Assembly: GCA_016183065.1 (NCBI GenBank)
Contig: JACPFF010000026.1
Location: 4,476-68,475 of the forward strand
Reading direction: 5' to 3'
From: Deltaproteobacteria bacterium
GTDB taxonomy: Bacteria; UBA10199; GCA-002796325; JACPFF01
DNA: 64,000 bases
In this document: piece after piece, positions 40,273-60,679 of the stretch
How positions within the stretch are numbered: the first letter of the stretch is position 1
Layout of the letters: every line of letters begins with the position of its first letter
Made by a program: the position numbers and the translations under genes
The notes under the pieces: generated by a model
Seen by the model: the letters and a program-made list of their open reading frames with translations, nothing else
The model's database searches: none
Told to the model about the DNA's origin: nothing

Positions 40273-40273
40273 A

Positions 40274-42516: not shown

Positions 42517-43455
42517 CTACTGCGCTTGTACGAGGAGACCGCCCCAACTTGCTCCCATGCCATAGGTCAGTGCGAGGGCGTAGGTCGATGTCGGTGGATG
42601 CTGCGCAACGAATTGCATCAACCCCAGCACGCAATCCGTTCCAAAAAGATGCCCCAAGGTCTCCATCTCCCGCTGCAGTAGGATCTGGCCGTGAAATTGC
42701 AAAAGCTCTCGGATACGCTGCCATGTCACCGGATTGCTGATATGGGGAATCACATGTGCAACCTGCTCAATGGTGATCCCATGCCGGACTAAGAGCGCAT
42801 GAACGAGCGAACGGAGGGTGAAAAAATATCGCCAGCTGAGTTCATCGCCAGCTCCACTCATGTCATATCGCGATGCATCGGTGATCACGTGCGTTCCCAC
42901 ATACGCGATTTCCGCGGGGGCATGGCTCAGAATCACCGCTGACGCCGCATCGCCCTGGATCACGCCGTTGCCCAATGTGCGGTGCGTCGTAAAATCCACA
43001 ACGTCGACCGTGGCCACCAACACGTGAGAATATGGCCGTGTCGTCAACCAGTGCGCAGCCTGTCGCATGGCAGCAATAGTGCCTGAACACTGATGTCCGC
43101 CGAGATGCAGGTATGGTCCCGAAACGCCAATGGGCTGCAATATGGATCGAACAAGAGAGCGTCCAGCGGGGAAGTGCGTCATCGGCAATGTGCAACAAAA
43201 TACGGTGCCATCAATTATTGTCGCCGGCATCGATGCCCGTTCGAGCGCACCCGTAATGGCCTCACGCAGCAATGACATCTTTGCATCGGCCGACCATGCT
43301 GCCAGACATGCGACGGTGCGATCATGACCTGCTGTTTCTTGCGTTGCAGAGATGCCCTCTATACGCATGATCGCACGACGCAACCGTCGCACCGTCCCCG
43401 TGACGCTATAGGCACCATGTACATAAATCCGACGTTGACGCTTCTGCTGATTCAT
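42517..43455 (-). CDS. KASIII-like condensing enzyme/acyltransferase (Cys present)
   Basis: Start MNQQKRQRRIYV in ATGA overlap with the upstream stop. GGHQCSGTIAAMRQAAHWL (Cys box), GDAASAVIL, HVIPHISN, GHLFGTDCVLGL. Confidence 0.6.
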   Translation of the reverse strand: MNQQKRQRRIYVHGAYSVTGTVRRLRRAIMRIEGISATQETAGHDRTVACLAAWSADAKMSLLREAITGALERASMPATIIDGTVFCCTLPMTHFPAGRSLVRSILQPIGVSGPYLHLGGHQCSGTIAAMRQAAHWLTTRPYSHVLVATVDVVDFTTHRTLGNGVIQGDAASAVILSHAPAEIAYVGTHVITDASRYDMSGAGDELSWRYFFTLRSLVHALLVRHGITIEQVAHVIPHISNPVTWQRIRELLQFHGQILLQREMETLGHLFGTDCVLGLMQFVAQHPPTSTYALALTYGMGASWGGLLVQAQ

Positions 43456-44429: not shown

Positions 44430-44457
44430 GGCGGTTATGCGTACACGGTATCAGACT

Positions 44458-45828: not shown

Positions 45829-46348
45829 CGCTTTCCTTTCCGGCATCTTGTTCGAATGCGGTCCATGCGCGCCGCAGATAGCGGCGTAAGACAAAGGCAT
45901 ATTTACTGATATCAACACCATACAATCGGACGTGATATTGTTGATATGACGTGTCCGCGGCGATCCGGAACACTACGGAGGGGATGATCTCGCAGGTCTC
46001 AGGGTTCAGTCGCCGGAGGTTGAGCCAACTCATAAGCTCACCGGCCGGACCATCGAGATGGAGGAGAACCCAGAGCGGAACCGTTTCTCGAAGGACCAGT
46101 CGCATTTCTCCATGTATCTGCAGCATCGCGCCGGAAAGGCCATAATGTACATGTGGTGCGCGGATGTACACGAACTGGTCAGGCCGTGCAGTAGTGGAAA
46201 AGACCTCGGGACGAAGCACTCCGGCATTACCGCAGTGACGGTAGAACATCGCCGCGATATGCTGTCCCCCAGTGACAGTCAGTGGTGCCCATCGCCGTGA
46301 CATGCGTATGAACGCATATGGTGCCAGGTGTTGTGTGTGGCGCCTCAT
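45749..46348 (-). CDS. Hypothetical protein (199 aa) inside the biosynthetic operon
   Basis: ATGA coupling with the ACP stop supports translation. No recognised motif. The 3' end overlaps the ATP-grasp ORF. Confidence 0.4.
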   Translation of the reverse strand: MRRHTQHLAPYAFIRMSRRWAPLTVTGGQHIAAMFYRHCGNAGVLRPEVFSTTARPDQFVYIRAPHVHYGLSGAMLQIHGEMRLVLRETVPLWVLLHLDGPAGELMSWLNLRRLNPETCEIIPSVVFRIAADTSYQQYHVRLYGVDISKYAFVLRRYLRRAWTAFEQDAGKESDAPLFSDSTSTAPLDRSPSRYLGHRM

Positions 46349-46629
46349 GCCGCACCAGCCTCTTGTTGTTGCGGTACTGTTAAGAGCTTTTGCACAAGCA
46401 GAGATACCAAGGCGCTGAGGCGCTCGAAGAGTTCTGGTGAGAGTTCGTCATCATCAAAAACAACGTGTAACTGGTTTTCAATGTCAACGATCAATTCCAT
46501 TACCCCGAGTGAGTCGAGCCCGATCTCAAAGAGGTTCGTCTCCAGCGAAAGCGAATGGTCTGTTGCACTGAGTTTGACGATCCGCGTGATCATGGGGTTC
46601 AGAATCGTCATGATCTGTTGCTCATTCAT
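46345..46629 (-). CDS. Stand-alone acyl/peptidyl carrier protein
   Basis: 94 aa. LFEIGLDSLGVMELIVDIE contains the DSL phosphopantetheine attachment motif. Confidence 0.85.
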   Translation of the reverse strand: MNEQQIMTILNPMITRIVKLSATDHSLSLETNLFEIGLDSLGVMELIVDIENQLHVVFDDDELSPELFERLSALVSLLVQKLLTVPQQQEAGAA

Positions 46630-47644
46630 GGTGCGTGCCTTTCTCGTGTCCGTAGTGCATCGGACGTGTCGGGGTGAAAATCATTGTGCAGAGAGTCGTT
46701 CCGAGGCCCGTTGCATGCAGTGCCACCGGCTTCTTTGCGCCTCGTCGCAAAACTTCCATCAGGCATCCAATGGCGATATGTGCAGATGTCAGTGCGTATT
46801 CCCGAACGTGGTCGTCAATAATAGTCCGCTTTGTCCGGGGATACGATGTCAGTCGGTCCATGGCCCGGTTCAATGGGGGATTGTTTGTCACAATGAATTC
46901 CATATCGTCGGCGGTGAAGCCCGTCTGAGTGAAGGCCCGTTCATATTCGTGGAGTGACCATTGCACACCCTTTACGGCCAGTGTGCGCAGCGTTTCCAAT
47001 GGTTCGCGATACCGTCGGCCGCCCTGGGGAATGCAGCGTGAGGCCACGTAGTGAATGGGGCCACCCTCGCGACTCAGGAGGACGGCGCTCCCAGCATCTC
47101 CAAAGATCAGATGGTTGACCACCCGTGGTTCACCACAATGCGTTGCCACGCAGTCTCCACCAGCCACGATGACCCGATGGATGTCGGGACGGGCGGACAT
47201 CACATACCACGCGGCTTCAATCGCGGCGATGCTGGACGCACAATTACGCTGAGTGACATGTGCGACGTAGCGCAGATCCATCATGCCTGTCAGTTCAGCA
47301 AGGCGCGATGGCATATTGATCGTAGTATCCTCGGGCCATGGAATGGCATCATAATAGAGCAAGGCATCGACGGCCGCGGGTGGCAGCGCATTGTTGGCAA
47401 GCAATTGCTCAACGGCCATCACGGCCAGATCCAGTGGGCGCTCGCTGCTCGCGATAGGGACAGAGGCGTACCCTGCGGCGCGATACGATGCGGGATCGAG
47501 CGAGGGGGTTGAGACATGATCATAGTTGGTGTCGAGACGCGTTCCCGCTGCAATGCGGGCCCGTTCGACGGCAATGACCTGTTCAACAGTGTAGCGTTTT
47601 GGTGCGGGGACGTACACGCAATCCTGGATGCCGATAGCGGCCAT
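46622..47644 (-). CDS. KASIII-like condensing enzyme/acyltransferase (Cys present, atypical His/Asn positions)
   Basis: Start MAAIGIQDCVYV with GAAAGGAGGA RBS. TQRNCASSIAAIEAAWYVM Cys box, IVAGGDCV, FGDAGSAVLL. Confidence 0.6.
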   Translation of the reverse strand: MAAIGIQDCVYVPAPKRYTVEQVIAVERARIAAGTRLDTNYDHVSTPSLDPASYRAAGYASVPIASSERPLDLAVMAVEQLLANNALPPAAVDALLYYDAIPWPEDTTINMPSRLAELTGMMDLRYVAHVTQRNCASSIAAIEAAWYVMSARPDIHRVIVAGGDCVATHCGEPRVVNHLIFGDAGSAVLLSREGGPIHYVASRCIPQGGRRYREPLETLRTLAVKGVQWSLHEYERAFTQTGFTADDMEFIVTNNPPLNRAMDRLTSYPRTKRTIIDDHVREYALTSAHIAIGCLMEVLRRGAKKPVALHATGLGTTLCTMIFTPTRPMHYGHEKGTHHE

Positions 47645-47675
47645 CGTTCCTCCTTTCGTGTGCAGAATGAAAATG

Positions 47676-48827
47676 TCAGATACGGAGATGCGTGCAGATA
47701 TGTTCGCGCTGCATCTCTCCTGTCCCTTCGAGAATATCAAAGACCTTGGCCGCCCGGTACAATCGTTCGAACAAGTGTCCTTCGACCAATGCCTCTGCGC
47801 CAATGATCTCGATGCCGCGAACGGCCATCCGCATGGCGAATTGTGCCGTGTATGCCTTTGCAATCGAGACGGCGTATTGGGCCGGGAGTCCGGTATCGTG
47901 GGCATGAGCGGCCCGTTGACAGAGCATCCGTCCTATGTGGATGTCACGTTCCACCTCCGGAAGTGTCTTGCCGTATTCGCTGCGCAATGTGTCGGCAATG
48001 GCACGCGCGATTCCCACGCTGATGGCCGAGACTTCGATGCGAAAAAAGCTCCACGCGGCCGTCGCACCATGGAATCCAGCCAGATAGGCCTTTCTGTCGG
48101 GGCCGCAGAGGAGTTGCGATTTGGGTACAAAGCACTCATCCAGGACGATTTCGGCAATGCCCGCCGCGCCAAGGCCCATCATTTTCTCGACGGTTCCAAT
48201 CGAAAATCCTGGGGCATCACGGTCGACAATGAAGGCACGCAATCCGAATTGTTTCCGGGATGCATCAATCGTCGCAAAGACAATCGTGTAATCCGCGCGG
48301 GCCCCATTGGTGATGAAGCACTTTGTCCCATTGAGGATGTATCCGCCGTCGACCTTGCGGGCGCGGGTCCGCAATGCTGTTGCATCGGATCCGGCATGGC
48401 TTTCGGTGATGGCAAATGCGCCCCATACATTGCGCTGTGTGCTGAACTTCCGAAAATAGCGCTCACGCTGCGCTTCGGATCCGAATGCGCAGAGCACCGG
48501 AAACGTCAGACTTGGGCCCGGCAACCCGCAGGTCAAACCGGGATCACCCCACGCGAGCTCCTCGGTCAGCAGAATACTGATCTGCGAGGAGCATTCAATC
48601 CGCCGGTCGCTGCCCGGAATCGGTACGCCCCCACCATACCTGCAGGGAACGTAGGCAGCGCTCAGAATGTCCGCCCAAGGATGTTCCAGGACTCGCGGGG
48701 GGATCTCTCCTGTGCGGTCTGCCACTGCTGCCGCAGGCCGGAGGTGCTCTCGCGCAAAACAGCGGGCTTCTTCACGCAACGCCGCGTGCTGTGCAGGTGT
48801 CAGTGTGGGTATTGGTGTCATTTGCAA
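47676..48827 (-). CDS. Acyl-CoA (or acyl-ACP) dehydrogenase, catalytic alpha-type subunit
   Basis: GAFAITESHAGSDATALRTRARKVDGGYILNGTKCFITNG and C-terminal FDILEGTGEMQR (catalytic-Glu region) are ACAD hallmarks. Confidence 0.8.
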   Translation of the reverse strand: MQMTPIPTLTPAQHAALREEARCFAREHLRPAAAVADRTGEIPPRVLEHPWADILSAAYVPCRYGGGVPIPGSDRRIECSSQISILLTEELAWGDPGLTCGLPGPSLTFPVLCAFGSEAQRERYFRKFSTQRNVWGAFAITESHAGSDATALRTRARKVDGGYILNGTKCFITNGARADYTIVFATIDASRKQFGLRAFIVDRDAPGFSIGTVEKMMGLGAAGIAEIVLDECFVPKSQLLCGPDRKAYLAGFHGATAAWSFFRIEVSAISVGIARAIADTLRSEYGKTLPEVERDIHIGRMLCQRAAHAHDTGLPAQYAVSIAKAYTAQFAMRMAVRGIEIIGAEALVEGHLFERLYRAAKVFDILEGTGEMQREHICTHLRI

Positions 48828-49755
48828 TGATGGCTCCGAGTTCTCGCAACATCGTTTTCAGCACCTGGGCATCACGCATCCATTTTTCGACAGGATGATC
48901 CTCGAGATAGCCATGACCACCCAAGACCTGTACTGCACCTTCAACAATGTCATCGAGCACAGTACAGAGCAGACATTGTGATTGCCATACCGCACCCGGT
49001 GTCTGCGGATGGTGCAACGCATGATCAAAACACGCTGTTGCCCGTTCATACCCAATGGCCATATTGGCGAGTTTCTGTGAGACGGCCTGCCACCGGACAA
49101 TGGCGCGTCCGAATGTCTGACGTTCATGGGCATAGGCATGTGCGTATTGAATCGTTGCACGCAGGAGACCGAATGTCACACATTGGTACAACAGACTGAT
49201 TTCGTCGAGGAAGCTTGCATAGTCGGATGTGGAGATATTTCCCAGCATCACACGCACCGGTGCGGATTGTGGCGCGAACCATGAAATGCCGCGAAATCCC
49301 ATATACTGGCGAGTGGCGGCCATGGTCGTACCTATCAAGAGGAGTTCGTGCCCACTGGCACTCGACCGAATCATATAGCTATCGGCTACCGGTACATTCA
49401 TCGCCATCACAAATGCGCACGGCTCATAGGGGAAAATCGGGGCCGTGACGAGCGGATGCGCTGCCCTCGACTGTAAGGCGCTGTGGATGAGTCCAGCAAA
49501 CAGACGGAGGGCGATGGCGGCGTCCCGCTGCCCGACGCACCCGATGATCTGTGCAAGGGCCGCTGCATCACAATATGGGTTGTGATAGAATCCCCCCGAG
49601 GCGATGTCGTGCAGGCCCAGTTCACTGGCCCGCGCGGCAATTGCTGACCACACGGCTGGATCTCGCTCCATGCGCCGTGACATGGGCGCCACGCATGTCG
49701 CGGCAAAGTCTTCAACCGGTGGCAACAACGCATTGGTCATTTCATTTGTGCACAT
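48772..49755 (-). CDS. Acyl-CoA dehydrogenase-like beta-type subunit (degenerate)
   Basis: YAHERQTFGRAIVRWQAVSQKLANM and VQVLGGHGYLEDHPVEKWMRDAQVL match ACAD C-terminal helices. The N-terminal and middle FAD/substrate blocks and the YEGT catalytic motif are not recognisable. Confidence 0.6.
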   Translation of the reverse strand: MCTNEMTNALLPPVEDFAATCVAPMSRRMERDPAVWSAIAARASELGLHDIASGGFYHNPYCDAAALAQIIGCVGQRDAAIALRLFAGLIHSALQSRAAHPLVTAPIFPYEPCAFVMAMNVPVADSYMIRSSASGHELLLIGTTMAATRQYMGFRGISWFAPQSAPVRVMLGNISTSDYASFLDEISLLYQCVTFGLLRATIQYAHAYAHERQTFGRAIVRWQAVSQKLANMAIGYERATACFDHALHHPQTPGAVWQSQCLLCTVLDDIVEGAVQVLGGHGYLEDHPVEKWMRDAQVLKTMLRELGAIIANDTNTHTDTCTARGVA

Positions 49756-49767
49756 GGCATTCGTCCC

Positions 49768-50769
49768 TTATTGGTGATATCGCAGACGCAAATCCGCCAA
49801 TCCGGTCACAGCGCGTACTTTGAATGGGGCCGCAGGGTTCGTGGCCACGTCAACGTGGACATCTGACAGGCCACTTTTGATGGTTGGGGCCACGACGGCC
49901 CCTTCGGGGAATTCAAGCGTGGAATCTGTGGCACCCGCACGAATGTCGACCTCTCCGGACGACGGCATCTGTATCCAGCGGAGAAACAATTCTCCCAGCC
50001 CTGTGCGGACCTCGACAGTTGACGAGCGGATCTCTCCCCAAAGGGTTCCCACGCCAACTTTTACTGCAAGTGGGCCTGCCAGGTTGGTGAGATGGAGTGT
50101 CCCTTTGCGCACTTCGGCAGTGATCGCAAGGCCCGAGGGGACCATGAGACCGACATCCACCTCGCAATCACCAGGATCCAGCACGGCCTTCTCGGTTTTG
50201 ACAACGATGCTATCTGCTTCCGTCGTCACTTCGGTTTGGCAGCTTGGACTGCTCTTGCGTGGGTAGGTGCGCAGCTCGATGGTGTCTGTCGCAATACCGG
50301 CGACATGTACCACGCCCACATCATGCCGCACAGTGAGGTGATCGACCTGCACTGCCGGAATCACCCGTGTGATATCGGGTGCCGTACTGGTGTCAAAGAC
50401 AAAAGCGGCATTTCGACCGGTTGTTTCTGCGACCTCTGTGGACATGTCGCGCTGTGTGCCGACGAATTGCGTAACGCTTGCGCGAAAAGATGCAACCGCT
50501 GCACGCACATTGTGCTCGACGGTGTGCGCCACACTGGTGGCAGTATTGCGTGCCGTCGCCCATATGGTTTGTTCATCCCAGCGGGAAGCCAATGCTCTGG
50601 TCCCGCCAAGCCATTGCATGGCCGTCTGTACCTCGTCGACCGCTTCAACCACATGGTCAACAAAAGATGCGGCGGTTTGTTGCACGCCAGATGTCACGTC
50701 AGCGATGAATCGCTCGATGTAACATGCGGGCACATTTGTACTGCTACTGCAGGTGCGTAGGTCTCCCAT
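49768..50769 (-). CDS. DUF4097-like beta-helical protein, no obvious signal peptide
   Basis: Repetitive V.V....G.L.G.I....V.V.TG.G strands (LAVKVGVGTLWGEIRSSTVEVRTGLGELFL) typical of the putative-adhesin DUF4097 fold. Confidence 0.5.
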   Translation of the reverse strand: MGDLRTCSSSTNVPACYIERFIADVTSGVQQTAASFVDHVVEAVDEVQTAMQWLGGTRALASRWDEQTIWATARNTATSVAHTVEHNVRAAVASFRASVTQFVGTQRDMSTEVAETTGRNAAFVFDTSTAPDITRVIPAVQVDHLTVRHDVGVVHVAGIATDTIELRTYPRKSSPSCQTEVTTEADSIVVKTEKAVLDPGDCEVDVGLMVPSGLAITAEVRKGTLHLTNLAGPLAVKVGVGTLWGEIRSSTVEVRTGLGELFLRWIQMPSSGEVDIRAGATDSTLEFPEGAVVAPTIKSGLSDVHVDVATNPAAPFKVRAVTGLADLRLRYHQ

Positions 50770-50852
50770 GAGACACCTCCTTTGGTGTTTGGTCAGGTAA
50801 GCAAGTGAATATCGCCATCAGTCAGCAATACGAACGATGCCGCGGAATGGTG

Positions 50853-51539
50853 TTATGATGACTGCGGATACTGCAGTGTGACGCTGCCAAAACCCACCTT
50901 GGCCTGCAGCAAAAACCCCGAGGTGCTACTGGTTTGTAATGCATTGATAATGCGACCAAAACCTTGCACGAGGTCCGGTCGGATGGTCGTGCCGCGGGGA
51001 AAGGTCAATGTTACGACCCCAGCGCCCGCCTTGATGGCGAGAATTCCGCGCTGTGGCACGTGGCCCCAGACAAGGTCGACGTGGCCCGCGCCCAGCTTGA
51101 TGTGGGTGTCCTCCGAATCGATGGTGCCTCGGACATGGCCCGCACCCATGTTAATATGCAATGGCCCCCGGAGATGCGCGAGCTGCACCCTGCTTGCTCC
51201 ACTGTCGGCACGCACCGCCAGTGTGCGCGGCATCGTGACCACAAGATCCACCTCACAGCTCAGGCCGGAAAAGAGGGCATGTGCGGTTTTCACGAGCACG
51301 GTGTCTCCTTCCGTGCGCACTTTTGTCAGACAGCTGAGTCCGCCTTTGACCTTCTCTGCCCGCACGTGAATCGTCTCTGTTTCCATTCCTTCGATCCGCA
51401 CCGTCCCTTCCTCGTGCTTGATCCATACGGTTGTCACGCCTGCCTGCGGAACGGTGTGATCCAGCAACACCTCACCGGCACGCGCAAGACTGCTCCACGA
51501 CAGAGCGCTGATCATGATTGTGACCATCAAGTAGAGCAT
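50853..51539 (-). CDS. DUF4097-like beta-helical protein with signal peptide
   Basis: Start MLYLMVTIMISALSWSSLARA with GGAGG RBS. Same strand-repeat pattern (LHINMGAGHVRGTIDSEDTHIKLGAGHVDL). Confidence 0.5.
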   Translation of the reverse strand: MLYLMVTIMISALSWSSLARAGEVLLDHTVPQAGVTTVWIKHEEGTVRIEGMETETIHVRAEKVKGGLSCLTKVRTEGDTVLVKTAHALFSGLSCEVDLVVTMPRTLAVRADSGASRVQLAHLRGPLHINMGAGHVRGTIDSEDTHIKLGAGHVDLVWGHVPQRGILAIKAGAGVVTLTFPRGTTIRPDLVQGFGRIINALQTSSTSGFLLQAKVGFGSVTLQYPQSS

Positions 51540-51571
51540 ATATACCTCCTCAGTATGCGTACGGCTGCGTC

Positions 51572-51823
51572 CTAAAACGGAACCTCGTTCATCCACTGCA
51601 TGGCACAGTGCCACCATCCATTATCGGCCACCACAGGCCAGCCGTCAGTGACCGCCTTCATTGCCTGCGCAACATGACCAATGAGCAGTGCCAATGCAAC
51701 CACGAAAGTCAGGCCAGGGACAAGGAAGATCACAAGGTTGATCAGGAGCACGATAAGGATCAACAACATCACGAATAAGCTGATGAATGCCAGGGTTGTC
51801 ATCAGGACCTCCATGACGGTCAT
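51572..51823 (-). CDS. Small 2-TM membrane protein
   Basis: LAFISLFVMLLILIVLLINLVIFLVPGLTFVVALALLIGHV. The start is one of several Met codons around the MATE stop. Confidence 0.4.
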   Translation of the reverse strand: MTVMEVLMTTLAFISLFVMLLILIVLLINLVIFLVPGLTFVVALALLIGHVAQAMKAVTDGWPVVADNGWWHCAMQWMNEVPF

Positions 51824-53190
51824 TGTACGGCGCATTGTGCGACAGCCACGTGCGGTCGTCCAACACGTTGTGATTGCATGAGCCGGCGGTAGGATCGGAT
51901 GAACCAGATGGCCTCCACTGCATGCAAGACATGTGACCATGGTAAGATATACCGCAACGCCATTGGCCCCATCACGGGCACGATGATCAGATAGGGAAGT
52001 AATCGGCCAAAGACCACGACGATCACCAAGGTGATGAGATTGGGATAGGTCTTCCCCGTCCCTTCAAAGGCTCCCTGACCAATAAATCCGAGGGCAAGAA
52101 ACGGAAATCCGACGACCTCAGACTGAAAAACGAGAACGGCAAATTCACGGGCCCCGGTGGCATCGGGAGCCAGCAGCGATAAGGCCGGCGCGATTCCACA
52201 ATAGCAAATGATGACCAGACCTATATATGCGAGCACGATAACACGAAATGTGGCGGACACACCATGCCACGCGCGGGCTATTTGTCCGGCCCCAAGGTGC
52301 TGACTGACAAAAATGCTTATGCCAACACTGATGGCAATGGCGGGGAACAGCGCCATGGTGCGGACTCGTTCAAGAAGACCAAGGGCAGAGAGCGTTTCTG
52401 TGCCATAGTGGGAAAAAAATCCGACGGTCATTCCGGCCTCGATGGCCCCCAGAAGATTGCCTGCCATTACCGGCACGGCCATCAACAAAAATTGCCGCAG
52501 CCATCTCTGAGAAACGGCCATCCATCGCGCAGGACGCCCGCGGATGGCCAAGCAACGCATATAGACCGCGGTGCACACTACCGAAATCCACATGGCGACA
52601 ATCGTCGAAAGTCCGATGCCACTGATGGAGAGATGGCCCGACCACAATAACGCGCCTTGGAGCGCGACTTTGGTCCCTATGAACGTCAGGGATCCAACAT
52701 AGGACGGTGAAGTATGGCCAGTCCCACCGCACAGGGCCGCTTGATAGGCCCGAACGCACCAGGGAACGATGCTGGCCACAAAGCACAAGGCATAGAGGGT
52801 AAACCCCTTCGAGACTACGGGAGACATGGTGAACACTCGAGGCGCAATCGGGAGCAGGGCAAATCCGCAGACGGTCACGAGGAGGCCCACTCCCACGAGA
52901 AGCCCCCATCCCGTATCGCGCACCTCTGCTAATTGCTGCGGGTCACGCGTTCCCACCGCCCGGCCAATCAGTACGATCAATGGGATACTGAATCCTTCCA
53001 GCACCGCATACACGACAAAGAGGCAGGGCGACAAATAGGTGGCTACCGCAATATAGTCGGCTGTGAGTCTTCCCAAAAAATAGATATCGACCGAGAGCCA
53101 GAGGCTATTGATCACCATGCTGGCGAAAATTGGTGCTGAAAGTCGTGCAATGGCACGACCGATCGGTTGCGTTGTGATATCGTCTCTCAT
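51820..53190 (-). CDS. MATE-family efflux transporter
   Basis: Start MRDDITTQPIGRAIARLSAPIFASMVINSLWLSVDIYFLGRL in ATGA overlap with the upstream stop. 12 TM with a two-lobe repeat. Confidence 0.75.
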   Translation of the reverse strand: MRDDITTQPIGRAIARLSAPIFASMVINSLWLSVDIYFLGRLTADYIAVATYLSPCLFVVYAVLEGFSIPLIVLIGRAVGTRDPQQLAEVRDTGWGLLVGVGLLVTVCGFALLPIAPRVFTMSPVVSKGFTLYALCFVASIVPWCVRAYQAALCGGTGHTSPSYVGSLTFIGTKVALQGALLWSGHLSISGIGLSTIVAMWISVVCTAVYMRCLAIRGRPARWMAVSQRWLRQFLLMAVPVMAGNLLGAIEAGMTVGFFSHYGTETLSALGLLERVRTMALFPAIAISVGISIFVSQHLGAGQIARAWHGVSATFRVIVLAYIGLVIICYCGIAPALSLLAPDATGAREFAVLVFQSEVVGFPFLALGFIGQGAFEGTGKTYPNLITLVIVVVFGRLLPYLIIVPVMGPMALRYILPWSHVLHAVEAIWFIRSYRRLMQSQRVGRPHVAVAQCAVQ

Positions 53191-54122
53191 GGCAGTTGCG
53201 TAATGAAATGATCGATAGCGGTCAGAAAATTTTCGGGTTCCTCTTGGAATGGATTGTGTCCCGAGTGGGAAAATATGATGCGTTGGGCATGGTGTATCGC
53301 CTTCCAATAGGTCTCCAGACACGCGCGATCGACAATGCGATCATGCGTGCCACCGATGACCAACGTCGGACACTCGACACGAAGCAGTTGCGGGGTAATA
53401 TCCCTCGTCATGACGCTGTGATATTCGCAGGCTGCGAACAAGGTGTCATCGGCATCCTGCAGACTGTTCGCATCATATTCCCCGGTGCTAAGCGTGCTGC
53501 GGATATTGGCCTCCATGGCCGTGCGAGTGGCATCGTGGTCCCGATAGTACAAACCCGCGATGCGAGCATAATGGAACAACTGTGTAAATCGCGCGAATCC
53601 CAATGGGAGTTGAGTAATCCGTGTCAGGTTGTGCAGGGCCTTGGCATTGTCAGAGAAAAAACCCCGGAGATGGCAGAGGAGATTATACAGCATCTCCGGA
53701 AACGAGGCGGGCCCGCACACGTTGATCAACGCCCGTGTCCGTCGGGGCATCTGACTGGCAAAGAGCCCGGCGAGCATGCCGCCCCACGAATGTCCCATGA
53801 CAATCATCGGTGGAAGGGCAAGCTGCTCATGCATGTGGCACAGGCCCACAAGGAATGCATCCGGATCATGATCCTCGCACGGGATGTCTCGTGGAGAATG
53901 TCCACATCCCGGTTGATCCACCCATAACACCGTGTAGCGGGCTTCCAAGAGGCGACCACAACAGGCAGAAAAGTATGCACAGTTGTCACCGGGTCCCCCG
54001 TGGAGAAATAGGACGACGGGTTGATCCGTTGCGTGGCGGACCAGTCGGTAGGCGAATGGTGGACTGGTGCGTGTAAACTCCCACTGAAATCTGTCTTGGG
54101 CCCCCTCGATCATGCAAGTCAT
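53187..54122 (-). CDS. Alpha/beta hydrolase, proline iminopeptidase-like (S33)
   Basis: VVLFLHGGPG oxyanion block, GHSWGG nucleophile elbow, C-terminal SGHNPF His. Alternative start at 54173. Confidence 0.75.
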   Translation of the reverse strand: MTCMIEGAQDRFQWEFTRTSPPFAYRLVRHATDQPVVLFLHGGPGDNCAYFSACCGRLLEARYTVLWVDQPGCGHSPRDIPCEDHDPDAFLVGLCHMHEQLALPPMIVMGHSWGGMLAGLFASQMPRRTRALINVCGPASFPEMLYNLLCHLRGFFSDNAKALHNLTRITQLPLGFARFTQLFHYARIAGLYYRDHDATRTAMEANIRSTLSTGEYDANSLQDADDTLFAACEYHSVMTRDITPQLLRVECPTLVIGGTHDRIVDRACLETYWKAIHHAQRIIFSHSGHNPFQEEPENFLTAIDHFITQLP

Positions 54123-54136
54123 TGTCGGCAGTTTCC

Positions 54137-54700
54137 TCAGTGGTCGTGCGTGATCCTGGGGCGGGTAATGCATGCGAGATCCAACCGAATGCGCTTATTA
54201 TCTAACGAAACACAAATTGTTGCGCGGTGTTTTCGTTTGGAGAATTTGAGAATCATCCCTTCTTTTCCCTGTAAGGGGCCTGAGATAATATGTACGCGAT
54301 CGCCCTGTAACTCACCATGGGAGAGCCCCGCTGTCCCCGTATTGCCGGTTAACGCCTGCAGCAGATCCATTTCATGCGATTGCACGGGAATTAGTGACTC
54401 TCCGAGGCGGACAGGGCCATACATACTGTCAGGCCTGTTGTCGATCACGTGCCGCAGCACAGTTGGAGCACATTGAATAAATGCGTATCCCGGATAGAGC
54501 GGTCGTCGGCGTAACTGAAATGCTCCCCGATGGTATTCCAGCAACAGACGCATGGGTTGGAATATGCGGATGATTTTTTGCCCGAGACGTTGTCGCAATA
54601 TCTCCAAGCCCTGTGTTGTGGCCCGTTGTTGAAACGCCAATGCCCACCATGCCTGTTGTGACTGCGTGTCTATTATGCCCTCTCTTTCATGTGCCGTCAT
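54137..54700 (-). CDS. Specialised NusG-family paralogue (NGN + KOW), first gene of the biosynthetic operon
   Basis: NGN: WWALAFQQRATTQGLEIL...RRPLYPGYAFIQ. KOW: GDRVHIISGPLQGKEGMILKF. Alternative start at 54715. Confidence 0.7.
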   Translation of the reverse strand: MTAHEREGIIDTQSQQAWWALAFQQRATTQGLEILRQRLGQKIIRIFQPMRLLLEYHRGAFQLRRRPLYPGYAFIQCAPTVLRHVIDNRPDSMYGPVRLGESLIPVQSHEMDLLQALTGNTGTAGLSHGELQGDRVHIISGPLQGKEGMILKFSKRKHRATICVSLDNKRIRLDLACITRPRITHDH

Positions 54701-54818
54701 ATGTACGACATCCATAGACCTTAGAGTGCGGCCGGGGTTTTTTCTGGATGTGCCATTCGTGCCGTGGTTGCCGTAACAAACGCAGACATGTCGTGACGCA
54801 ATTCTGATGTTTTGGATT

Positions 54819-54834
54819 AGCAAGCACCGTGCCA
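54819..54834 (-). promoter_or_regulatory. Sigma-54 (-24/-12) promoter
   Basis: Minus strand reads TGGCACGGTGCTTGCT, which equals the consensus TGGCAC-N5-TTGCW. It lies 119 nt upstream of the NusG-like ATG and 40 nt after the preceding stop. Confidence 0.75.
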
Positions 54835-54873
54835 AAAAAGATTGACGAGAAAACGCGGTGAAATGCTTGTTTG

Positions 54874-55308
54874 CTACCGGACTGCTGCATGTCTCGTCCG
54901 ATTGCTCGAGCAATCGGACACAAAAACGGGATTTGACGACCAATCATCAGACATTGCCTGTGACTTCTGCGCGTCATTGATCGACGATTGGACGGGTGCG
55001 GCTCCGGAAAACACCGCTGGAAGAACTTCCTGTACGAGTGCATGAATCCGTTCCACATGGATGGCCATCCGCTCCAGGCTCACTCGGCACGCCTCATGCA
55101 GCGCTTGACCATCCGTGGTCAACGTGCGTGCGTCGAGCCATCGCAGAAATCCCGTCACGACCTGCAACGTACCTCGCAGGTCGTGAATCCGTTGCATCAG
55201 TTCTGCGTTTATTGGAACACCTCCATCATGCCTGGACTGTTGATTGTGCAATCTCCCATCCGTACAATTTTGGACCATGTCGCAGATACGACACGTTGTC
55301 ATGTACAC
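54874..55308 (-). CDS. Small H-box-only (DHp-like) protein, paralogue of 21826-22029
   Basis: LMQRIHDLRGTLQVVTGFLRWLDARTLT aligns with LAKLTHDLRGALQIVVAFVRSRDETSLT. No ATPase domain. The true start may be internal. Confidence 0.45.
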   Translation of the reverse strand: MYMTTCRICDMVQNCTDGRLHNQQSRHDGGVPINAELMQRIHDLRGTLQVVTGFLRWLDARTLTTDGQALHEACRVSLERMAIHVERIHALVQEVLPAVFSGAAPVQSSINDAQKSQAMSDDWSSNPVFVSDCSSNRTRHAAVR

Positions 55309-55468
55309 GCTGGTCCGGAACGTGAATGGGCGGTGACATGGTTCGCATCCACAGCTTCCATGTCAAAGAGGGCATTGGCATCGACCGGTTTGCCGATACG
55401 AGAGTCGTCGAGAAAGGATGGTTCCGTATCAGTGACACTCATCGGTGTTTCTCCGGTGCCGGCTCACG

Positions 55469-56878
55469 TTACTCTGAGACGTAGTCCCCATTCGTCATCC
55501 CCCAGTCTTTCAGCTTTTCATACAACCGGGAGCGGCTGACTTGCAGGATGGCAGCGGCCTTGCTCTTGTCGCCACACATGACTTCCAACGCCCGCGCAAC
55601 GTAGACGCGCTCTGCAGTGGTGACATACGCCTTCAAGGCCTGGAAGTCGCCGGGCGCATCGGGCAACGCCAGGAGGCCGTTCGCAGGGGTCTGCGCGCCG
55701 TTTGTCGATGGGCCCCGCTGGTGAAAGAGCCATTCCGGGAGATCGGAGAGCATGATGGTCGGTCCGGGGATGAGGATCACCAGACTTTGAATCAGGTTTT
55801 CCAGCTCGCGGACATTGCCAGGCCATGCATATTGCTGGAGTGCCATCATGGCGGTCTTGTTGAAGGTCCAGTCCGGGGTCCGAGCGTATTTATTGAGAAA
55901 GGCCTCGGCGAGGATTGGAATGTCTTCCCGTCGATCGCGCAGTGGGGGGATGTTGAGCGTAACCACCCGCAGACGATGAAAAAGATCGCGCCGAAACCGG
56001 TCGTGTTCCACGAGCGCCTCGAGATCGTCGTTGCACGCGGCGATGACGCGAAAATTGACCTTGATGGACTTCACGCTCCCAATTCGCACAATTTCTTGTT
56101 CCTGAATTGCCCGGAGAATCTTGGCCTGCAGGTCTTTCTTGAGCGACGAGACTTCATCCAAAAAGAGGTCACCGTTGTGGGCGAGTTCGAATTTGCCGAC
56201 CTTCCGCTCGGCGGCGCCGGTAAAGGCCCCTTTTTCGTGACCGAACAATTCCGATTCGAGCAGATTTTCGGGAATCGCGGCACAGTTGATGGCGACAAAT
56301 GGTCGATCCGGTTGCTGGTCGAGCCGATGAATATAGCGGGCAAAGAGCTCCTTGCCCGTCCCGGATTCCCCTTCGATCAGGATATTGGCCTGGTGGCCCT
56401 TGAGCTTCCGGGCGCGCTCGAGTTGGCCCAGCAGAAAGGCGGAACGACCCAGGATCAACCGGTCGCCGAATGCCTCGTTCAGGTCTTCCAGAAAGGCTGC
56501 GTGTTTCTCCCGGATGTCGCGGTAGGGGGCGAGTTTTTCGAGAATCGCGACCACTTCGTCAATCGCAAACGGTTTGATCAGGTAATCAGCCGCCCCCAGT
56601 CGCACCGCCGTCACGAGCAGCTGTGGATCCTTGTGCCCCGTGACAATGACCACATCGGCCGCCGGACAGATCTGTTTGATCGTCCGAATTCGTTGCAATC
56701 CGTTGTCCTGGCCGAGCGAGATATCGAGCAGGACGATCTCCATGGGGTGTCGGCGGAGGAGCGCAGCGCCGTCGTCGAAATTTTCTGCGGTCGTGAGGGT
56801 GCACTGCGACCGGAGTCCGATGCGGAGAGCGGTCAGGAACTCGGGGTTATCGTCGATCACCAACACCTGGGTTTGCAT
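55469..56878 (-). CDS. Sigma-54-dependent response regulator (NtrC family: receiver + AAA+ + Fis-type HTH)
   Basis: Start MQTQVLVIDDNPEF. GESGTGKE Walker A, GAFTGA loop, ENLIQ..., C-terminal SKAAAILQVSRSRLYEKLK HTH. Confidence 0.9.
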   Translation of the reverse strand: MQTQVLVIDDNPEFLTALRIGLRSQCTLTTAENFDDGAALLRRHPMEIVLLDISLGQDNGLQRIRTIKQICPAADVVIVTGHKDPQLLVTAVRLGAADYLIKPFAIDEVVAILEKLAPYRDIREKHAAFLEDLNEAFGDRLILGRSAFLLGQLERARKLKGHQANILIEGESGTGKELFARYIHRLDQQPDRPFVAINCAAIPENLLESELFGHEKGAFTGAAERKVGKFELAHNGDLFLDEVSSLKKDLQAKILRAIQEQEIVRIGSVKSIKVNFRVIAACNDDLEALVEHDRFRRDLFHRLRVVTLNIPPLRDRREDIPILAEAFLNKYARTPDWTFNKTAMMALQQYAWPGNVRELENLIQSLVILIPGPTIMLSDLPEWLFHQRGPSTNGAQTPANGLLALPDAPGDFQALKAYVTTAERVYVARALEVMCGDKSKAAAILQVSRSRLYEKLKDWGMTNGDYVSE

Positions 56879-57130
56879 GCTCGGCCTCGCCGCTGTGAAA
56901 TTAAGCAATTCTCGTGCCACTATGATTATTTTTCTAACATGCCGAAATTTAATCAGTTTCTGGATTGAGGTGAGCTATTGCAGACCGTCCGAAATCCGAC
57001 ATTTCGGACATATTGCCTGAATGTTGAACAATCGTGCAAATGAAAGAGGCACTCATCGAGTTGAGATGAATATTGGACATGAATGCATTCATGGCATAGG
57101 CATCCGCTGTCGCAAAAGGAGTTATAATAA

Positions 57131-58021
57131 ATGACGGCATCCTCAACGACCCTGCCAAGAGTCTTTTTTGTTCCTCACCCCACAACAGGTGCGCGGGGTG
57201 TGTCAGCACTCCGCACGGCACTTGCAGCGGTCTCTCAAGATATCCCAGGGCTCCAACCAGCGCATCTGTCTCCAGATCCGCAATACGATAGAGATTATGT
57301 CTACCGACAGAGTTATCAAAATCTCTCGCTCAAAGGCACAGATGTCACCCGGCGCCCGTGGAATATCTACGCGATCATCGCACGGTCTCTGTCACCCACT
57401 GCGGTTATGGTCGATGTTGGATGTGGCACTGCCTACAAATCAATTCGGCATGCTGCGGGGATACGGCTGCTCATCGGCCTTGAGCCCAACGAAAAGATGA
57501 TCGGACAGGCTGTGCAGAATGCCATGACCGCGAGTGCATTCAACGTCTGTTTTATGACTGGCACGTGTGACGCGCTGCCTTTTGTTGATAATAGCATCGA
57601 TGTCGTCACAGCATTGCTCGCACCGCACAACGCCCAAGAAATGCACCGTGTCCTCAAACCCGGAGGTTGGGCCATTGTCGAACGTGTAGGGGACAGAGAC
57701 AAAGTGAATATCAAGCAATACTTTGGCAGTGATGCCGAAGGGCCGCGTGGGCAGTTGCTGCATTATGAAGTAGGAACACGGGCAGTCATGATGACGGAAG
57801 AATTTCAAGGGTGCTTCTCACACGCCACCGCAAGGAATGGTTTTTGGGACACAGCATATACCATGGGCGAATTGCTGGTCCTCTTGGCACACACCCCGAC
57901 GATTCGCAATTACGTGTTACCACACGATCAACCCTATGTTGACGCCATCCAAGCTTCATTAGTGAGAGATGGAAAAATCCGGACAACCCAAAATCGGGTT
58001 TTGGTGGTCGCACAAAAGTGA
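57131..58021 (+). CDS. Class I SAM-dependent methyltransferase
   Basis: VMVDVGCGTAYKS (motif I), IDVVTALLAPHN, LKPGGWAIV. Confidence 0.7.
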   Translation: MTASSTTLPRVFFVPHPTTGARGVSALRTALAAVSQDIPGLQPAHLSPDPQYDRDYVYRQSYQNLSLKGTDVTRRPWNIYAIIARSLSPTAVMVDVGCGTAYKSIRHAAGIRLLIGLEPNEKMIGQAVQNAMTASAFNVCFMTGTCDALPFVDNSIDVVTALLAPHNAQEMHRVLKPGGWAIVERVGDRDKVNIKQYFGSDAEGPRGQLLHYEVGTRAVMMTEEFQGCFSHATARNGFWDTAYTMGELLVLLAHTPTIRNYVLPHDQPYVDAIQASLVRDGKIRTTQNRVLVVAQK

Positions 58022-58033
58022 CGAGGTCACGTC

Positions 58034-60679
58034 ATGCGTGCTGTTGTACCGGTAATGTTGCTGCTCTGGGCGGTCTCGTTCCCCCGCATATGCGAAGGAG
58101 CCCCGACGCTCTCCCCATGGAAAGCACGCCTGATATCACAGGCAACCACCGCAGCGACCCCGAACGCAGGAGATTGGGTTGCTGCGCAGGATCTCCCGAT
58201 CTCAAAACACTACATCGGCTACATTGAATATGTGACGGAGTTATCTGTCACCCCCACCGATCTCGTGCGCCCCCTGGGCATCTACCTTGGGGACATTTCG
58301 GACAGTGATCGCATCTACATGAATGATGCATTGATTGGCAGCACCGGTGGATTTCCTCCACATTATCAAGGATACATTGATTATGCGCGAGAGTATTTCA
58401 TTCCGAGCGCCATCCTTTCGACCGCGAAGGCGAATATTCTACGCATGGTCGTGTATGTGGAGTATCCCGCGAAAAAAGGAATCGATTTGTCGGTCGTACG
58501 CATCGGTGACCACACTGCCTTGCAGCGCATGAAATTTTTTCGTGAAGTGCGATGGTATCTCGTGAGACTGTTGATGCCGTTTATATGCGTCGTGTTGGCG
58601 ATCGTGGTATTTCTATCGCTCAATCTCATACGCCAGAAACAGCACGCACTTATCTATATTGGTATTGCCCTGAGTTTCGGCCTGTTCGGCATCAGCCGCA
58701 GCCGTGTCACATTTCATCTGTTTGATGTCGTCACGGCCTATAAAATTCTCATTGTCTCCAACATCCTTGGCGTGACGTTAATTCTGCTGCATGTCGCACA
58801 GGCTGGAAAAAGAGCGCGTGCATGGAGGTGTGCCGGTGTTTTTCTGCCATTGATGTATTTCAGCTCGATGGTCTTGTTTGAAACATCTGTCAATGCCATT
58901 TTCACTCGGTATGCCCCCTGGTTCGTTGTCGGCACGACCATGCTCGTGTTCTCGTTCATTATCGCCTGGATTCGGCGACGGAAAGTCGGCCATTTGTTCG
59001 CGGTAGGGCTGGGGATACTCACCGCCCTGGGCTTGTTCGACACGATGTTGTCGACCACCAGTGTGCGGCTGCCATACTTATTTGATATTGGTATCAGTCT
59101 TCTCGTGATGTGCATGATCTGTCGACACATCCTCGCAATCAAAGATTCGTATGTTGATATTTCGAATCATCAAATACTATTGGAGGCGCAAGCGGAAATG
59201 GCCACCAAGATTGGACAACTCGCCTCCCAAGTCGCCCACGACATCCGGTCGCCATTGACGGCCTTGCGGGCGATGGTGGGGCAGGTGGCGGAGGTGTCGG
59301 AAGAGTCTCGGGTGATGATGCGGAATGCCGTGCAGCGGATCGAGGATATTGCCAATGATCTGTGTGCACAGCAAGCGCATGGACAGGCGGGAGAAGCGGG
59401 CGGCGCCGATATGTGCTCGGTGCAATTGTTGTCGAGCTTGCTGGAACCGTTGATCTCCGAGAAGCGGACACAGCACCGGGCGCAGTTGGGGGTGGAAATT
59501 CATGCGGCGTTGGATGCGGCGAGTTATGGGGTCTTTGCGAACGTGCAGCCGGTGGAGTTCAAGCGCGTGCTCTCGAATCTGATCAACAACGCGGTGGAGG
59601 CGATGGCCCAGGGCCTGGTGACGGTGACGGTGCGCGCCGAAGACGCGGGTGTGGTCATCACGGTGATGGATACAGGGCACGGGATTCCGCCGGACATTCT
59701 GGCGCGGCTGATGCGCCCCGGAGCCACGTTTGGGAAGGCGGGGGGCTCAGGGCTCGGGTTGTATCATGCCCGGACGACGTTCGAGCGGTGGGGTGGGACG
59801 GTGGCATTGACCTCCACGATGGGCGTCGGCACCACGGTGACGCTCACCGTGCCGCGCGCGGCGGCCCCGCCGTGGTTTGTGCCGGAGTTGGTGCTGACGA
59901 CGGGGCAGACGATCGTGATCGTCGATGACGATGTCTCGATTCATCAGATCTGGCAGGAGCGGCTGGAGGTGCTGGATCTCGCGGCCCATGACATCGGGCT
60001 GCAACACTTTTCCTCCGGGACCGAGGTGGTGGCCTGGTATCAGGGGCAGGCCGATACCCACTTCCTCTGTGATTACGAATTTCTGGGGCATCCGAACAAC
60101 GGGTTGGAGTTGATCGCGCAGTTGGACGTTGCCGACCGCGCGACCTTGGTGACGAGTCATTATGAAGAAGCGCCGATCCAAGCGCGCTGTGCCGCGATGG
60201 GCGTACGCTTGATCCCGAAAGGCTTGGCGGGATTCGTGCCGGTTCGGGTCGCGCCGGTCGCAGAATCCATGGCAGCGACCAGCAGGGCACCCAGGGCCAC
60301 GGCACCCTCCCCTCAACGATCGAAGAGCGAAACCGCGAAACCCACTGCCCTGGTCCTCGACGATGATGCAGGGATCCGGTTTGTCTGGCCGATGGAAGGA
60401 GAGCGGCTCGGGTTCGACACCATCACCACGTTTGCGTCGATGGAAGCGTGTGAGGCGGCCCAACTCGATTACGCCCAATTCGACTTCGCGTTCGTCGATA
60501 AAAATATTCCCGAGTCCACGTGGCGCGTTGATCAAGTGATTACGCACCTGAAAGCAAACGGGGTGAAGAAGGTGTTCGTCGCCAGCGGGGAATCCGCGCG
60601 CGAGCTCCTGCGCGATCCGCTCTGTGCCGCCGTCGATGGGATCATCCCCATGAAAATCCCGCAGAAACTGCCGACGTAA
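58034..60679 (+). CDS. 7TMR-DISM-type hybrid sensor histidine kinase with two receiver domains
   Basis: Periplasmic DISMED2-like domain (IYMNDALIGSTGGFPP...), 7 TM, H-box VAHDIRSPLTAL, NLINNAVEAM, DTGHGIPPD, GGSGLGLYHA. The C-terminal half is collinear with 19786-21807. Confidence 0.85.
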   Translation: MRAVVPVMLLLWAVSFPRICEGAPTLSPWKARLISQATTAATPNAGDWVAAQDLPISKHYIGYIEYVTELSVTPTDLVRPLGIYLGDISDSDRIYMNDALIGSTGGFPPHYQGYIDYAREYFIPSAILSTAKANILRMVVYVEYPAKKGIDLSVVRIGDHTALQRMKFFREVRWYLVRLLMPFICVVLAIVVFLSLNLIRQKQHALIYIGIALSFGLFGISRSRVTFHLFDVVTAYKILIVSNILGVTLILLHVAQAGKRARAWRCAGVFLPLMYFSSMVLFETSVNAIFTRYAPWFVVGTTMLVFSFIIAWIRRRKVGHLFAVGLGILTALGLFDTMLSTTSVRLPYLFDIGISLLVMCMICRHILAIKDSYVDISNHQILLEAQAEMATKIGQLASQVAHDIRSPLTALRAMVGQVAEVSEESRVMMRNAVQRIEDIANDLCAQQAHGQAGEAGGADMCSVQLLSSLLEPLISEKRTQHRAQLGVEIHAALDAASYGVFANVQPVEFKRVLSNLINNAVEAMAQGLVTVTVRAEDAGVVITVMDTGHGIPPDILARLMRPGATFGKAGGSGLGLYHARTTFERWGGTVALTSTMGVGTTVTLTVPRAAAPPWFVPELVLTTGQTIVIVDDDVSIHQIWQERLEVLDLAAHDIGLQHFSSGTEVVAWYQGQADTHFLCDYEFLGHPNNGLELIAQLDVADRATLVTSHYEEAPIQARCAAMGVRLIPKGLAGFVPVRVAPVAESMAATSRAPRATAPSPQRSKSETAKPTALVLDDDAGIRFVWPMEGERLGFDTITTFASMEACEAAQLDYAQFDFAFVDKNIPESTWRVDQVITHLKANGVKKVFVASGESARELLRDPLCAAVDGIIPMKIPQKLPT

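Follow-up and report, generated by a model that had tools for sequence, protein, structure and literature searches.

We describe a putative control region in a 64-kb window of an uncultured 'Deltaproteobacteria' metagenome-assembled genome (MAG), in which a NusG paralogue of the LoaP type heads a long operon behind a consensus sigma-54 promoter and a covarying leader hairpin. Counts given for the window cover all 64 kb. The element is best described, from sequence, as a conserved cassette comprising a candidate site for an enhancer-binding protein (EBP), a sigma-54 promoter, a LoaP-type hairpin and a loaP-like gene, all placed where a biosynthetic operon begins, with functional steps that we propose from comparison. 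It seems probable that three devices are coupled here: kinase-EBP input, sigma-54 initiation and elongation control by the LoaP-like protein. The components are all known; the combination, the host lineage and the layout with the hairpin before loaP are new.

The LoaP-like gene is the first of ~19 co-directional genes that run on the minus strand from 54700 to 38391, a ~16-kb operon. Its ATG at 54700, also the start chosen by gene callers (P0001), opens a protein of 187 amino acids (aa); the source protein annotation reads 'MAG: Deltaproteobacteria bacterium'. Down to 38391 the open reading frames (ORFs) overlap or sit no more than ~83 nucleotides (nt) apart. A preliminary description of this DNA had likewise made a NusG-family gene the first cistron of a long operon, and all of its coordinates proved correct when rechecked on the sequence. 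By Pfam, the operon encodes two acyl-CoA dehydrogenases, two KASIII-like enzymes, an acyl carrier protein (ACP), an ATP-grasp enzyme, pyridoxal phosphate-dependent decarboxylases and a phosphopantetheinyl transferase, along with several proteins that match no family. Our best explanation, which we hold to be likely as a whole, is that this is a small-molecule biosynthesis operon and that the region described here is its control region; the 18 genes after the LoaP-like gene are the presumed target of read-through control. The link between a LoaP-like gene and an adjoining long biosynthetic operon extends beyond the window: the neighbourhood is conserved in related loci (L165–L169), and the order LoaP-like gene, hydrolase, MatE, unknowns, acyl-CoA dehydrogenases is kept in L165, L166, L167 and L169.

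Sequence profiles place the 187-aa protein closest to LoaP. Of the NCBIfam models, antiterm_LoaP (NF033641) scores 94.2 bits (E 9e-27), compared with 44.7 bits for UpxY (cutoff 100), 36.4 for RfaH (cutoff 144.5) and 32.4 for NusG (cutoff 135.7). A HMMER search of 1.84 billion representatives returned five proteins with E < 1e-28 and then a gap to 4e-15, and a profile search enlarged this clade to 10 proteins. LoaP is the top model for all 10, at 85–122 bits versus no more than 58 for UpxY, RfaH or NusG, about a twofold difference. Next after the clade, the profile search brings up entries named 'antiterminator LoaP' by NCBI (Spirochaeta, Bacillus, Paenibacillus and others). When the clade alignment was run against genomes and metagenomes, it yielded only one close relative, truncated at its 5' end (L005, labelled 'uncultured delta proteobacterium'), and distant NusG paralogues.

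The predicted fold agrees with the profiles. The AlphaFold2 model (pLDDT 91.8, pTM 0.83) comprises an NGN domain and a beta-barrel KOW domain. Both had been named in the preliminary description; in Pfam, NusG (NGN) lies just over its cutoff (23.0 versus 22.2 bits) and KOW, at 17.3 bits, below its own. The best sequence match among solved structures is 8f5g_A (E 3e-15), followed by RfaH (4e-4). In Foldseek, the model superposes on 8f5g, entitled 'NusG-RNA complex', over its full length with both domains together (TM 0.79–0.87, 170 columns), whereas RfaH and NusG structures fit one domain only (query-normalised TM ~0.45). Going by its title, we take 8f5g to be the LoaP-hairpin complex of Elghondakly et al. 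2024.

We also built a neighbour-joining tree (100 bootstrap replicates) from the clade, named LoaPs, E. coli NusG and RfaH, and UpxY-like and other NusG-like proteins. The clade was monophyletic in 100/100 replicates and grouped with the named LoaPs in 98/100, as against 2/100 with RfaH. The dedicated paralogue of the preliminary description thereby falls with the LoaPs and not with housekeeping NusG, which profile scores, fold and tree together rule out. RfaH was rejected as well: its model scores 36 versus 94 bits for LoaP, the gene is a first cistron rather than stand-alone, and the C-terminal domain is modelled as a beta-barrel. Judged by sequence and modelled fold, the protein is a specialised LoaP-like NusG paralogue and not a housekeeping NusG.

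Promoter and leader hairpin

The operon is preceded by a predicted sigma-54 promoter, TGGCACGGTGCTTGCT, that matches TGGCAC-N5-TTGCW perfectly and ends 119 nt before the ATG (coordinates in Table 1). It also fits the longer sigma-54 consensus, YTGGCACGrNNNTTGCW. Exact matches to TGGCAC-N5-TTGCW number three in the window, all on the minus strand, versus 0.09 expected, and 0/100 shuffles reached three. The second, TGGCACGAGAATTGCT, is the regulator's own promoter; it lies outside the coordinates of the preliminary description and had been missed there. The third may be an internal promoter like those of Myxococcus natural-product operons, or a chance match.

Promoter position is conserved across the clade. 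For the comparison, the contigs of the nine other clade proteins were fetched one by one through exact-protein look-ups. TGGCA[CT]-N5-[TCA]TGCT stands 109–188 nt before the start codon in all eight related loci that reach far enough upstream; the contigs of L169 and L170, too short upstream, were left out of this count, and that of L167 starts inside the element (CACGGCTCTTGCT). Invariant across the clade promoters are the C and A of the -24 element and the TGCT of the -12 element. The promoter is kept although the LoaP-like proteins are only 36–60% identical, in loci that range from AT-rich to 55% GC. In ~150 loci with other NusG paralogues (~1.6 Mb in all), no NusG-like gene is preceded by the pattern. 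Enrichment in the window and conserved position in the clade rule out a chance match at the operon promoter, and the consensus element first reported there stands.

The preliminary description had further suggested that the leader might contain the recruitment element of the paralogue, and the homologous loci revealed a conserved, covarying hairpin of the type bound by LoaP. Between promoter and start codon, the clade loci share a sole conserved block, T-G-T-T-N-C-K-G-C, which RNAalifold places at the apex of a hairpin. In the consensus structure, 89.9% of cells are paired, versus 70% in shuffles and 25–60% when the partners are slid. Compensatory changes occur in 8 of the 11 pairs, and the covariation score of 0.606 (0.248 in shuffles) was reached by 0/500 shuffles. 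The three pairs adjacent to the apex vary (GTT/AAC, GTC/GAC, GCA/AGC, ATC/GGT, ACG/CGT), and the apex itself, consisting of G-C, U·G and a tetraloop, is invariant as U-G-U-U-N-C-K-G-C. The tetraloop is UUCG, UACG or UGCG (UNCG) in six of nine loci. Folded in isolation, 8/9 clade sequences give the hairpin as their minimum-energy structure. It is this covariation and these local folds that support the hairpin, not the fold of the whole leader.

The same apex recurs beside LoaP-like genes outside the clade. A covariance model (R2) built from the nine clade hairpins only has a single match in the window, the leader hairpin itself. Across ~1.6 Mb of NusG-paralogue loci it found one further significant match (L007 6520–6553, E 8.6e-5), located directly after the loaP-like gene of Clostridium lundense. 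Weaker matches (E ~0.7) with the same apex adjoin LoaP-like genes in L174/L175 (UGUUGCGGC) and L177 (UGUUACGGC). No Rfam family covers the hairpin. In Bacillus velezensis, LoaP requires the UNCG-tetraloop hairpin GGCCAAUCGCGUCUUCGGCACGUUGCC in the dfn and mln leaders and binds the leader hairpin with both domains, and hairpin deletion abolishes antitermination in vivo and in vitro (PMC12691694). By analogy, the hairpin described here is a candidate recruitment RNA for the LoaP-like protein.

Two side observations concern related loci. In L174 (~1000–1130) and L177 (~500–580), a strong intrinsic terminator, GCTTCGCC...GGCGAAGC with a T-run, comes within ~30–90 nt after a UGUUNCGGC hairpin; to judge by sequence, this is the canonical LoaP leader layout, which is absent from the sigma-54 clade. 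Separately, Bacteroidota UpxY-like loci have in common a TGGCAY-N5-YTGCW motif ~2–2.5 kb beyond the point where the NusG-like gene starts, which may represent a conserved sigma-54 promoter inside polysaccharide loci.

Activator, kinase and possible phosphorelay

By its domains and motifs, the regulator encoded upstream of the operon is a complete NtrC-type EBP. Its translation contains the acceptor D52, the Walker A motif GESGTGKE, GAFTGA and a DE Walker B motif, and Pfam assigns Response_reg, Sigma54_activat and HTH_8 (a Fis-type helix-turn-helix). The sigma-54 enhancer-binding response regulator with GAFTGA that had been placed here is confirmed in every domain and motif.

A rare palindrome connects this gene with the operon. 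GTCCGA-N8-16-TCGGAC occurs exactly twice in the window versus 0.01 expected, and both copies precede sigma-54 promoters; a search of the window that allowed 1–2 mismatches found no enrichment. The 24-bp copy, GTCCGATTGCTCGAGCAATCGGAC, overlaps the 3' end of a mini-ORF between regulator and operon. With a GAFTGA EBP adjacent, the two candidate activator sites lie 85 and 90 nt upstream, inside the ~80–150 bp range expected of such sites. Because the palindrome is common to both promoters, we infer that the EBP activates its own gene as well as the operon. Its own sigma-54 promoter and palindrome imply that the regulator may be positively autoregulated.

Related loci preserve parts of this arrangement with different sites. 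The closest relative, L004, has the related sequence GTCCCACATTTCGAGAAATCAGAC at a similar distance from its promoter. In L166, whose LoaP-like protein has 36% identity to that of the window, the genes just upstream include those for an orthologous EBP (44% identity) and a hybrid kinase (39% over 498 aa). A sigma-54-like element, TGGTATAAAAATTGCT, lies 48 nt before that EBP gene and is preceded by two TGTTCAGAATTTGGACA repeats, and TGAACA-N7-TGTTCA stands 86 nt upstream of the operon promoter of the same locus. L165 and L171 carry GTKCAGAATNTNGRAC sites 111–120 nt upstream of their operon promoters and nowhere else in 179 loci, a pattern that was derived post hoc; these sites are closely related to those before the L166 EBP gene. 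As a side observation, L004 also holds a perfect palindrome, AAAGACGCATTGCATGCGTCTTT (368–390), that starts 38 nt upstream of its sigma-54 element and resembles either a terminator for the gene before it or a further site for a regulator.

Signal input would come from a phosphorelay, of which the divergently encoded hybrid histidine kinase is the presumed sensor. The mini-ORF between regulator and operon carries an H-box-like motif, RIHDLRGTLQVVTGFL, and encodes a candidate phosphotransfer protein that would consist of kinase dimerisation/histidine-phosphotransfer (DHp) helices alone. A paralogue in the window, a 67-aa ORF (KLTHDLRGALQIVVAFV; 21826–22029, plus strand), is 35% identical to it over 43 aa (pairwise E 9e-8) and lies directly after another hybrid kinase (19717–21807), which suggests that tiny H-box proteins form a family whose members accompany hybrid histidine kinases. 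L166 has a 68-aa ORF after its EBP gene, in the same position as the mini-ORF, with LRHDINNQLAIIGSFL and a sub-threshold match to SPOB_a (Spo0B-type, E 0.0023). The two proteins have an H-D-x-x-x-x-L motif in common and no significant similarity to each other. Of the H-box mini-protein proposed in the preliminary description, the ORF and the H-box-like motif hold up; its family support consists of a sub-threshold HisKA match (E 0.16) and the one paralogue in the window. Spo0B-like phosphotransfer by the mini-protein, between the receiver of the kinase and the EBP, is plausible, and we propose a phosphorelay onto the EBP from these sequence features.

Proposed mechanism and alternatives

In the mechanism we propose, the hybrid kinase (58034–60679) would pass phosphate to Asp52 of the EBP, with the mini-protein (55302–54874) as a possible intermediate. 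The activated EBP would bind the GTCCGA-N11/12-TCGGAC palindromes ~85–90 bp upstream of the two sigma-54 promoters and open both, its own, in positive autoregulation, and that of the operon (54834–54819), whose transcript would start near 54808. The first 50 nt of this transcript would fold into the UNCG-type hairpin (54791–54758), and the LoaP-like protein would bind the hairpin RNA through both domains, as Bacillus LoaP does. By taking the place of NusG on the elongating polymerase, it could then render the polymerase resistant to termination and polarity over all 16 kb of the operon. Since the hairpin stands upstream of the loaP-like gene itself, expression at full length would be self-reinforcing once the promoter has fired.

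Several results count against this account. The protein itself, at 94.2 bits, falls short of the NCBI LoaP cutoff of 125, as do all members of the LoaP-like clade, and the tree left out TaA and ActX, so that it holds no comparison with myxobacterial TaA. The hairpin departs from its presumed model: the tetraloop is UUCU, not UNCG, in three of nine loci, a U·G pair closes the loop, and the bulges are arranged differently from those of the dfn hairpin. In the window sequence the lower stem is poorly paired, the minimum-energy fold of the full 111-nt leader lacks the consensus hairpin, and this leader is no more stable than shuffles (z = 0.21). The leader has no terminator after the hairpin, and the operon is not enriched in intrinsic terminators (9 found, 13.8 expected); Rho-dependent polarity is our guess at the target of antitermination. 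On the side of initiation, no rpoN was seen in the 64-kb window, the extent of our coverage of this genome; no palindrome, even with 1–2 mismatches, lies near the third sigma-54 motif (40423–40408); and we infer, rather than observe, that the palindromes are candidate binding sites of the adjacent EBP. For the mini-ORF, no family match reaches significance, and the one paralogue is the only homologue found, a profile search having added none.

Both parts of the proposed elongation step, the RNA nature of the signal and its pairing with the paralogue, face alternatives. The leader element might instead act as an ops-like non-template DNA signal for pausing and recruitment, with promoter and paralogue as described, which we regard as unlikely. 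The ops element itself forms a small hairpin, the invariant nine-nucleotide block suits a sequence-specific DNA signal equally, and a DNA hairpin would keep the stem covariation too. RfaH and UpxY are recruited by non-template DNA (PMC7819879; PMC11685472). LoaP, however, bound the single-stranded DNAs tested only weakly (PMC12691694), and in our model both domains fit the LoaP-RNA complex together. Moreover, the invariant U·G and the further G·U are RNA-type pairs, and the 11-pair stem is far longer than ops. A hairpin unrelated to the paralogue has a slimmer chance still; it would be a 5' stabiliser, an RNase site or the site of another factor, with the protein recruited elsewhere or acting generally. 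UNCG tetraloop hairpins are common stable structures at 5' ends, no Rfam family covers this one, and apart from L007 the matches outside the clade are individually not significant (E ~0.7). Against this, loop as well as stem is invariant across loci whose proteins are 36–60% identical, and the same apex adjoins LoaP-type genes in unrelated organisms (L007, L174, L177) and occurs nowhere else in ~1.6 Mb of other NusG-paralogue loci.

The identity of the protein and of its activator can also be read differently. Were the protein a member of the myxobacterial TaA family, the arrangement would be a deltaproteobacterial TaA system. Both the source MAG and L005 carry the label Deltaproteobacteria, the Myxococcus gene for TaA lies inside the antibiotic operon that TaA targets (PMC7593976), and our comparison set was without any TaA sequence. 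Profile, structure and tree evidence nevertheless all point to LoaP, no Myxococcota genome is among the best 80 genome loci, and a LoaP-type hairpin is present; we think this reading very improbable. Somewhat less remote, though still improbable, is that the sigma-54 promoter is functional but served in trans by another EBP, the palindromes binding a different regulator. L165 has the conserved promoter and hairpin with no EBP gene within 6.5 kb upstream, as this reading would have it. Yet the same rare palindrome precedes the sigma-54 promoters of both the EBP gene and the operon, the EBP-kinase pair is kept beside the operon in the distant L166, and the upstream sites of L165 and L171 resemble those before the L166 EBP gene. 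We favour control by the adjacent EBP and recruitment of a LoaP-like protein to the leader hairpin.

We would extend the model to a lineage only tentatively, with the balance of probability somewhat against us: a Gram-negative branch of LoaP, not recognised before, may have co-evolved with sigma-54 promoters, with promoter, promoter-proximal UNCG hairpin and loaP travelling as one cassette and a new class of DHp-only proteins of 65–140 aa shuttling phosphate from hybrid kinases to the EBP.

Known systems, operon genes and other features

The closest known counterpart is Bacillus LoaP, work on which, with the dfn and mln leader hairpin, is reportedly that of Goodson (2017) and Elghondakly (2021, 2024). 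To our knowledge, studies of LoaP antitermination are confined to one organism, in systems where the promoters are of the housekeeping-sigma type and the terminators are NusA-dependent hairpins. Both systems place a specialised NusG paralogue beside a long secondary-metabolite operon, and Bacillus LoaP is the best match to our protein in sequence, profile and fold. Both hairpins combine a UNCG-type tetraloop with a near-apical bulge (...GUCUUCGGCAC... in dfn, ...UGUUNCGGC... here). The differences are equally clear. The protein in the window scores under the NCBI cutoff and belongs to a separate clade (100/100), and its promoter is sigma-54-type rather than housekeeping-sigma. The hairpin lies upstream of the loaP-like gene itself, as first cistron, and with no terminator in the leader and no excess in the operon, NusA-dependent hairpin terminators may not be the target. 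The host, too, is an uncultured 'Deltaproteobacteria' MAG, whereas LoaP has been reported from Bacillota, Actinomycetota and Spirochaetota, and TaA from myxobacteria (PMC12691694).

Other NusG paralogues resemble the system in part. In the capsular polysaccharide operons of Bacteroides, the UpxY gene likewise comes first in the operon that UpxY controls, and the protein acts on the leader upstream of its gene (PMC7819879), so the topology would be self-reinforcing in the same way as here. In contrast to the recruitment proposed here, that of UpxY runs through the non-template strand of transcribed DNA, and UpxZ antagonises the protein; the UpxY promoters are invertible rather than sigma-54-type, and the UpxY model gives just 45 bits in our case. 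RfaH and ops likewise pair an operon-specific paralogue with a promoter-proximal leader signal in long operons, but the RfaH signal is DNA and the RfaH C-terminal domain an autoinhibitory alpha-helical hairpin, in contrast to the beta-barrel KOW of our AlphaFold model and the 36 bits of the RfaH model. TaA, of the M. xanthus antibiotic TA (myxovirescin), is a NusG-like protein in a deltaproteobacterium within a ~40-kb antibiotic operon; neither mechanism nor recruitment element is known for TaA, and the likeness drawn here is one of description.

Sigma-54 control of biosynthesis has precedents in M. xanthus, where sigma-54 and EBPs govern natural-product genes and where auto-regulated EBPs and internal promoters occur (PMC7910581; PMC3665592). 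Sigma-54 EBPs are reported to bind natural-product promoters there (Volz 2012, as cited by PMC4880591 and PMC7910581). The Nla28/Nla28S pair in particular combines a response-regulator EBP and a sensor kinase with -24/-12 biosynthetic promoters and upstream repeat sites; sigma-54 also controls the EBP genes themselves, and sigma-54 promoters often lie inside genes (PMC7910581). That system has no NusG paralogue or leader hairpin, whereas here a dedicated, intergenic promoter has been conserved along with the antiterminator. Our literature search found no paper combining 'LoaP' with 'sigma-54' or 'NusG paralog' with 'RpoN', and none linking TaA to a sigma-54 promoter. The coupling that the preliminary description had called undescribed is therefore new as a combination, while one half of it, sigma-54/EBP control of natural-product clusters, was already known (PMC7910581).

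If correct, the extended model would wire enhancer-activated, all-or-none initiation to self-reinforcing processive antitermination of a whole biosynthetic operon. Sigma-54 initiation would for the first time be connected with a dedicated elongation factor of the NusG family, and, for the first time in a LoaP system, intrinsic terminators would probably not be the targets. The cassette itself would place an antibiotic switch of the Gram-positive type, the LoaP-type pair of protein and hairpin, in a different lineage, under an enhancer-dependent promoter and with the recruitment site ahead of the paralogue. The clade would supply independent covarying hairpins and protein partners for defining an RNA-recognition code, and a test case for whether LoaP-type factors also counter Rho-dependent or other termination. 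The EBP, palindrome, sigma-54 promoter, hairpin and loaP could serve as portable control parts and would probably be needed for heterologous expression of the silent 16-kb cluster. Further examples could be sought with the signature TGGCAY-N5-YTGCT, a spacing of ~45–60 nt, then UGUUNCGGC.

Table 1. Positions of the features discussed, in the 64-kb window unless a locus is named.
Feature	Position	Strand	Basis and remarks
LoaP-like NusG paralogue, 187 aa, first cistron	54137–54700	-	NCBIfam LoaP is the best model
Leader hairpin	54758–54791	-	apex UGUUACGGC at 54778–54770; UACG tetraloop at 54775–54772
Sigma-54 promoter of the operon, TGGCACGGTGCTTGCT	54819–54834	-	-24 GG at 54833–54832, -12 GC at 54821–54820; predicted start near 54808
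Mini-ORF with H-box-like motif RIHDLRGTLQVVTGFL	54874–55302	-	HisKA E 0.16, sub-threshold
Perfect 24-bp palindrome GTCCGATTGCTCGAGCAATCGGAC (GTCCGA-N12-TCGGAC)	54896–54919		starts 85 nt upstream of the operon's -24 element
47-aa ORF, coding status uncertain	55299–55442	-	gene-finder call on L001–L003; between regulator and mini-ORF
NtrC-type response regulator / sigma-54 EBP, 469 aa	55469–56878	-	Pfam and NCBIfam: REC, AAA+ with GAFTGA, HTH_8
Second consensus sigma-54 promoter, TGGCACGAGAATTGCT	56904–56919	-	exact match, ~26 nt before the regulator's ATG (56878)
Palindrome GTCCGA-N11-TCGGAC	56987–57009		starts 90 nt upstream of the regulator's -24 element
S-adenosylmethionine (SAM)-dependent methyltransferase gene, role uncertain	57131–58021	+	Pfam; immediately upstream of the hybrid kinase
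Hybrid histidine kinase (HisKA, HATPase_c, receiver)	58034–60679	+	Pfam; divergent from the regulator gene
Third TGGCAC-N5-TTGCT	40408–40423	-	within a 312-aa gene, 135 nt before the start of a 424-aa gene
18 further operon genes	38391–54173	-	Pfam: alpha/beta hydrolase, MatE exporter, unknowns, ACP, others
TGGCAY-N5-YTGCW in Bacteroidota loci	L017 8504; L023 8515; L045 8503; L027 6081; L018 3424; L110 10504; L055 8405		

The remaining features are neighbours of the control region. The stop codon of the 47-aa ORF overlaps the start of the mini-ORF (ATGA), and its product matches no family. In L166, genes for a methyltransferase, a B12-binding radical SAM enzyme, a hexapeptide transferase and a solute-binding protein lie between EBP and hybrid kinase (2331–7468); BLASTP detects no similarity between that methyltransferase and the one in the window. 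The rest of the window holds respiratory and multihaem cytochrome genes.

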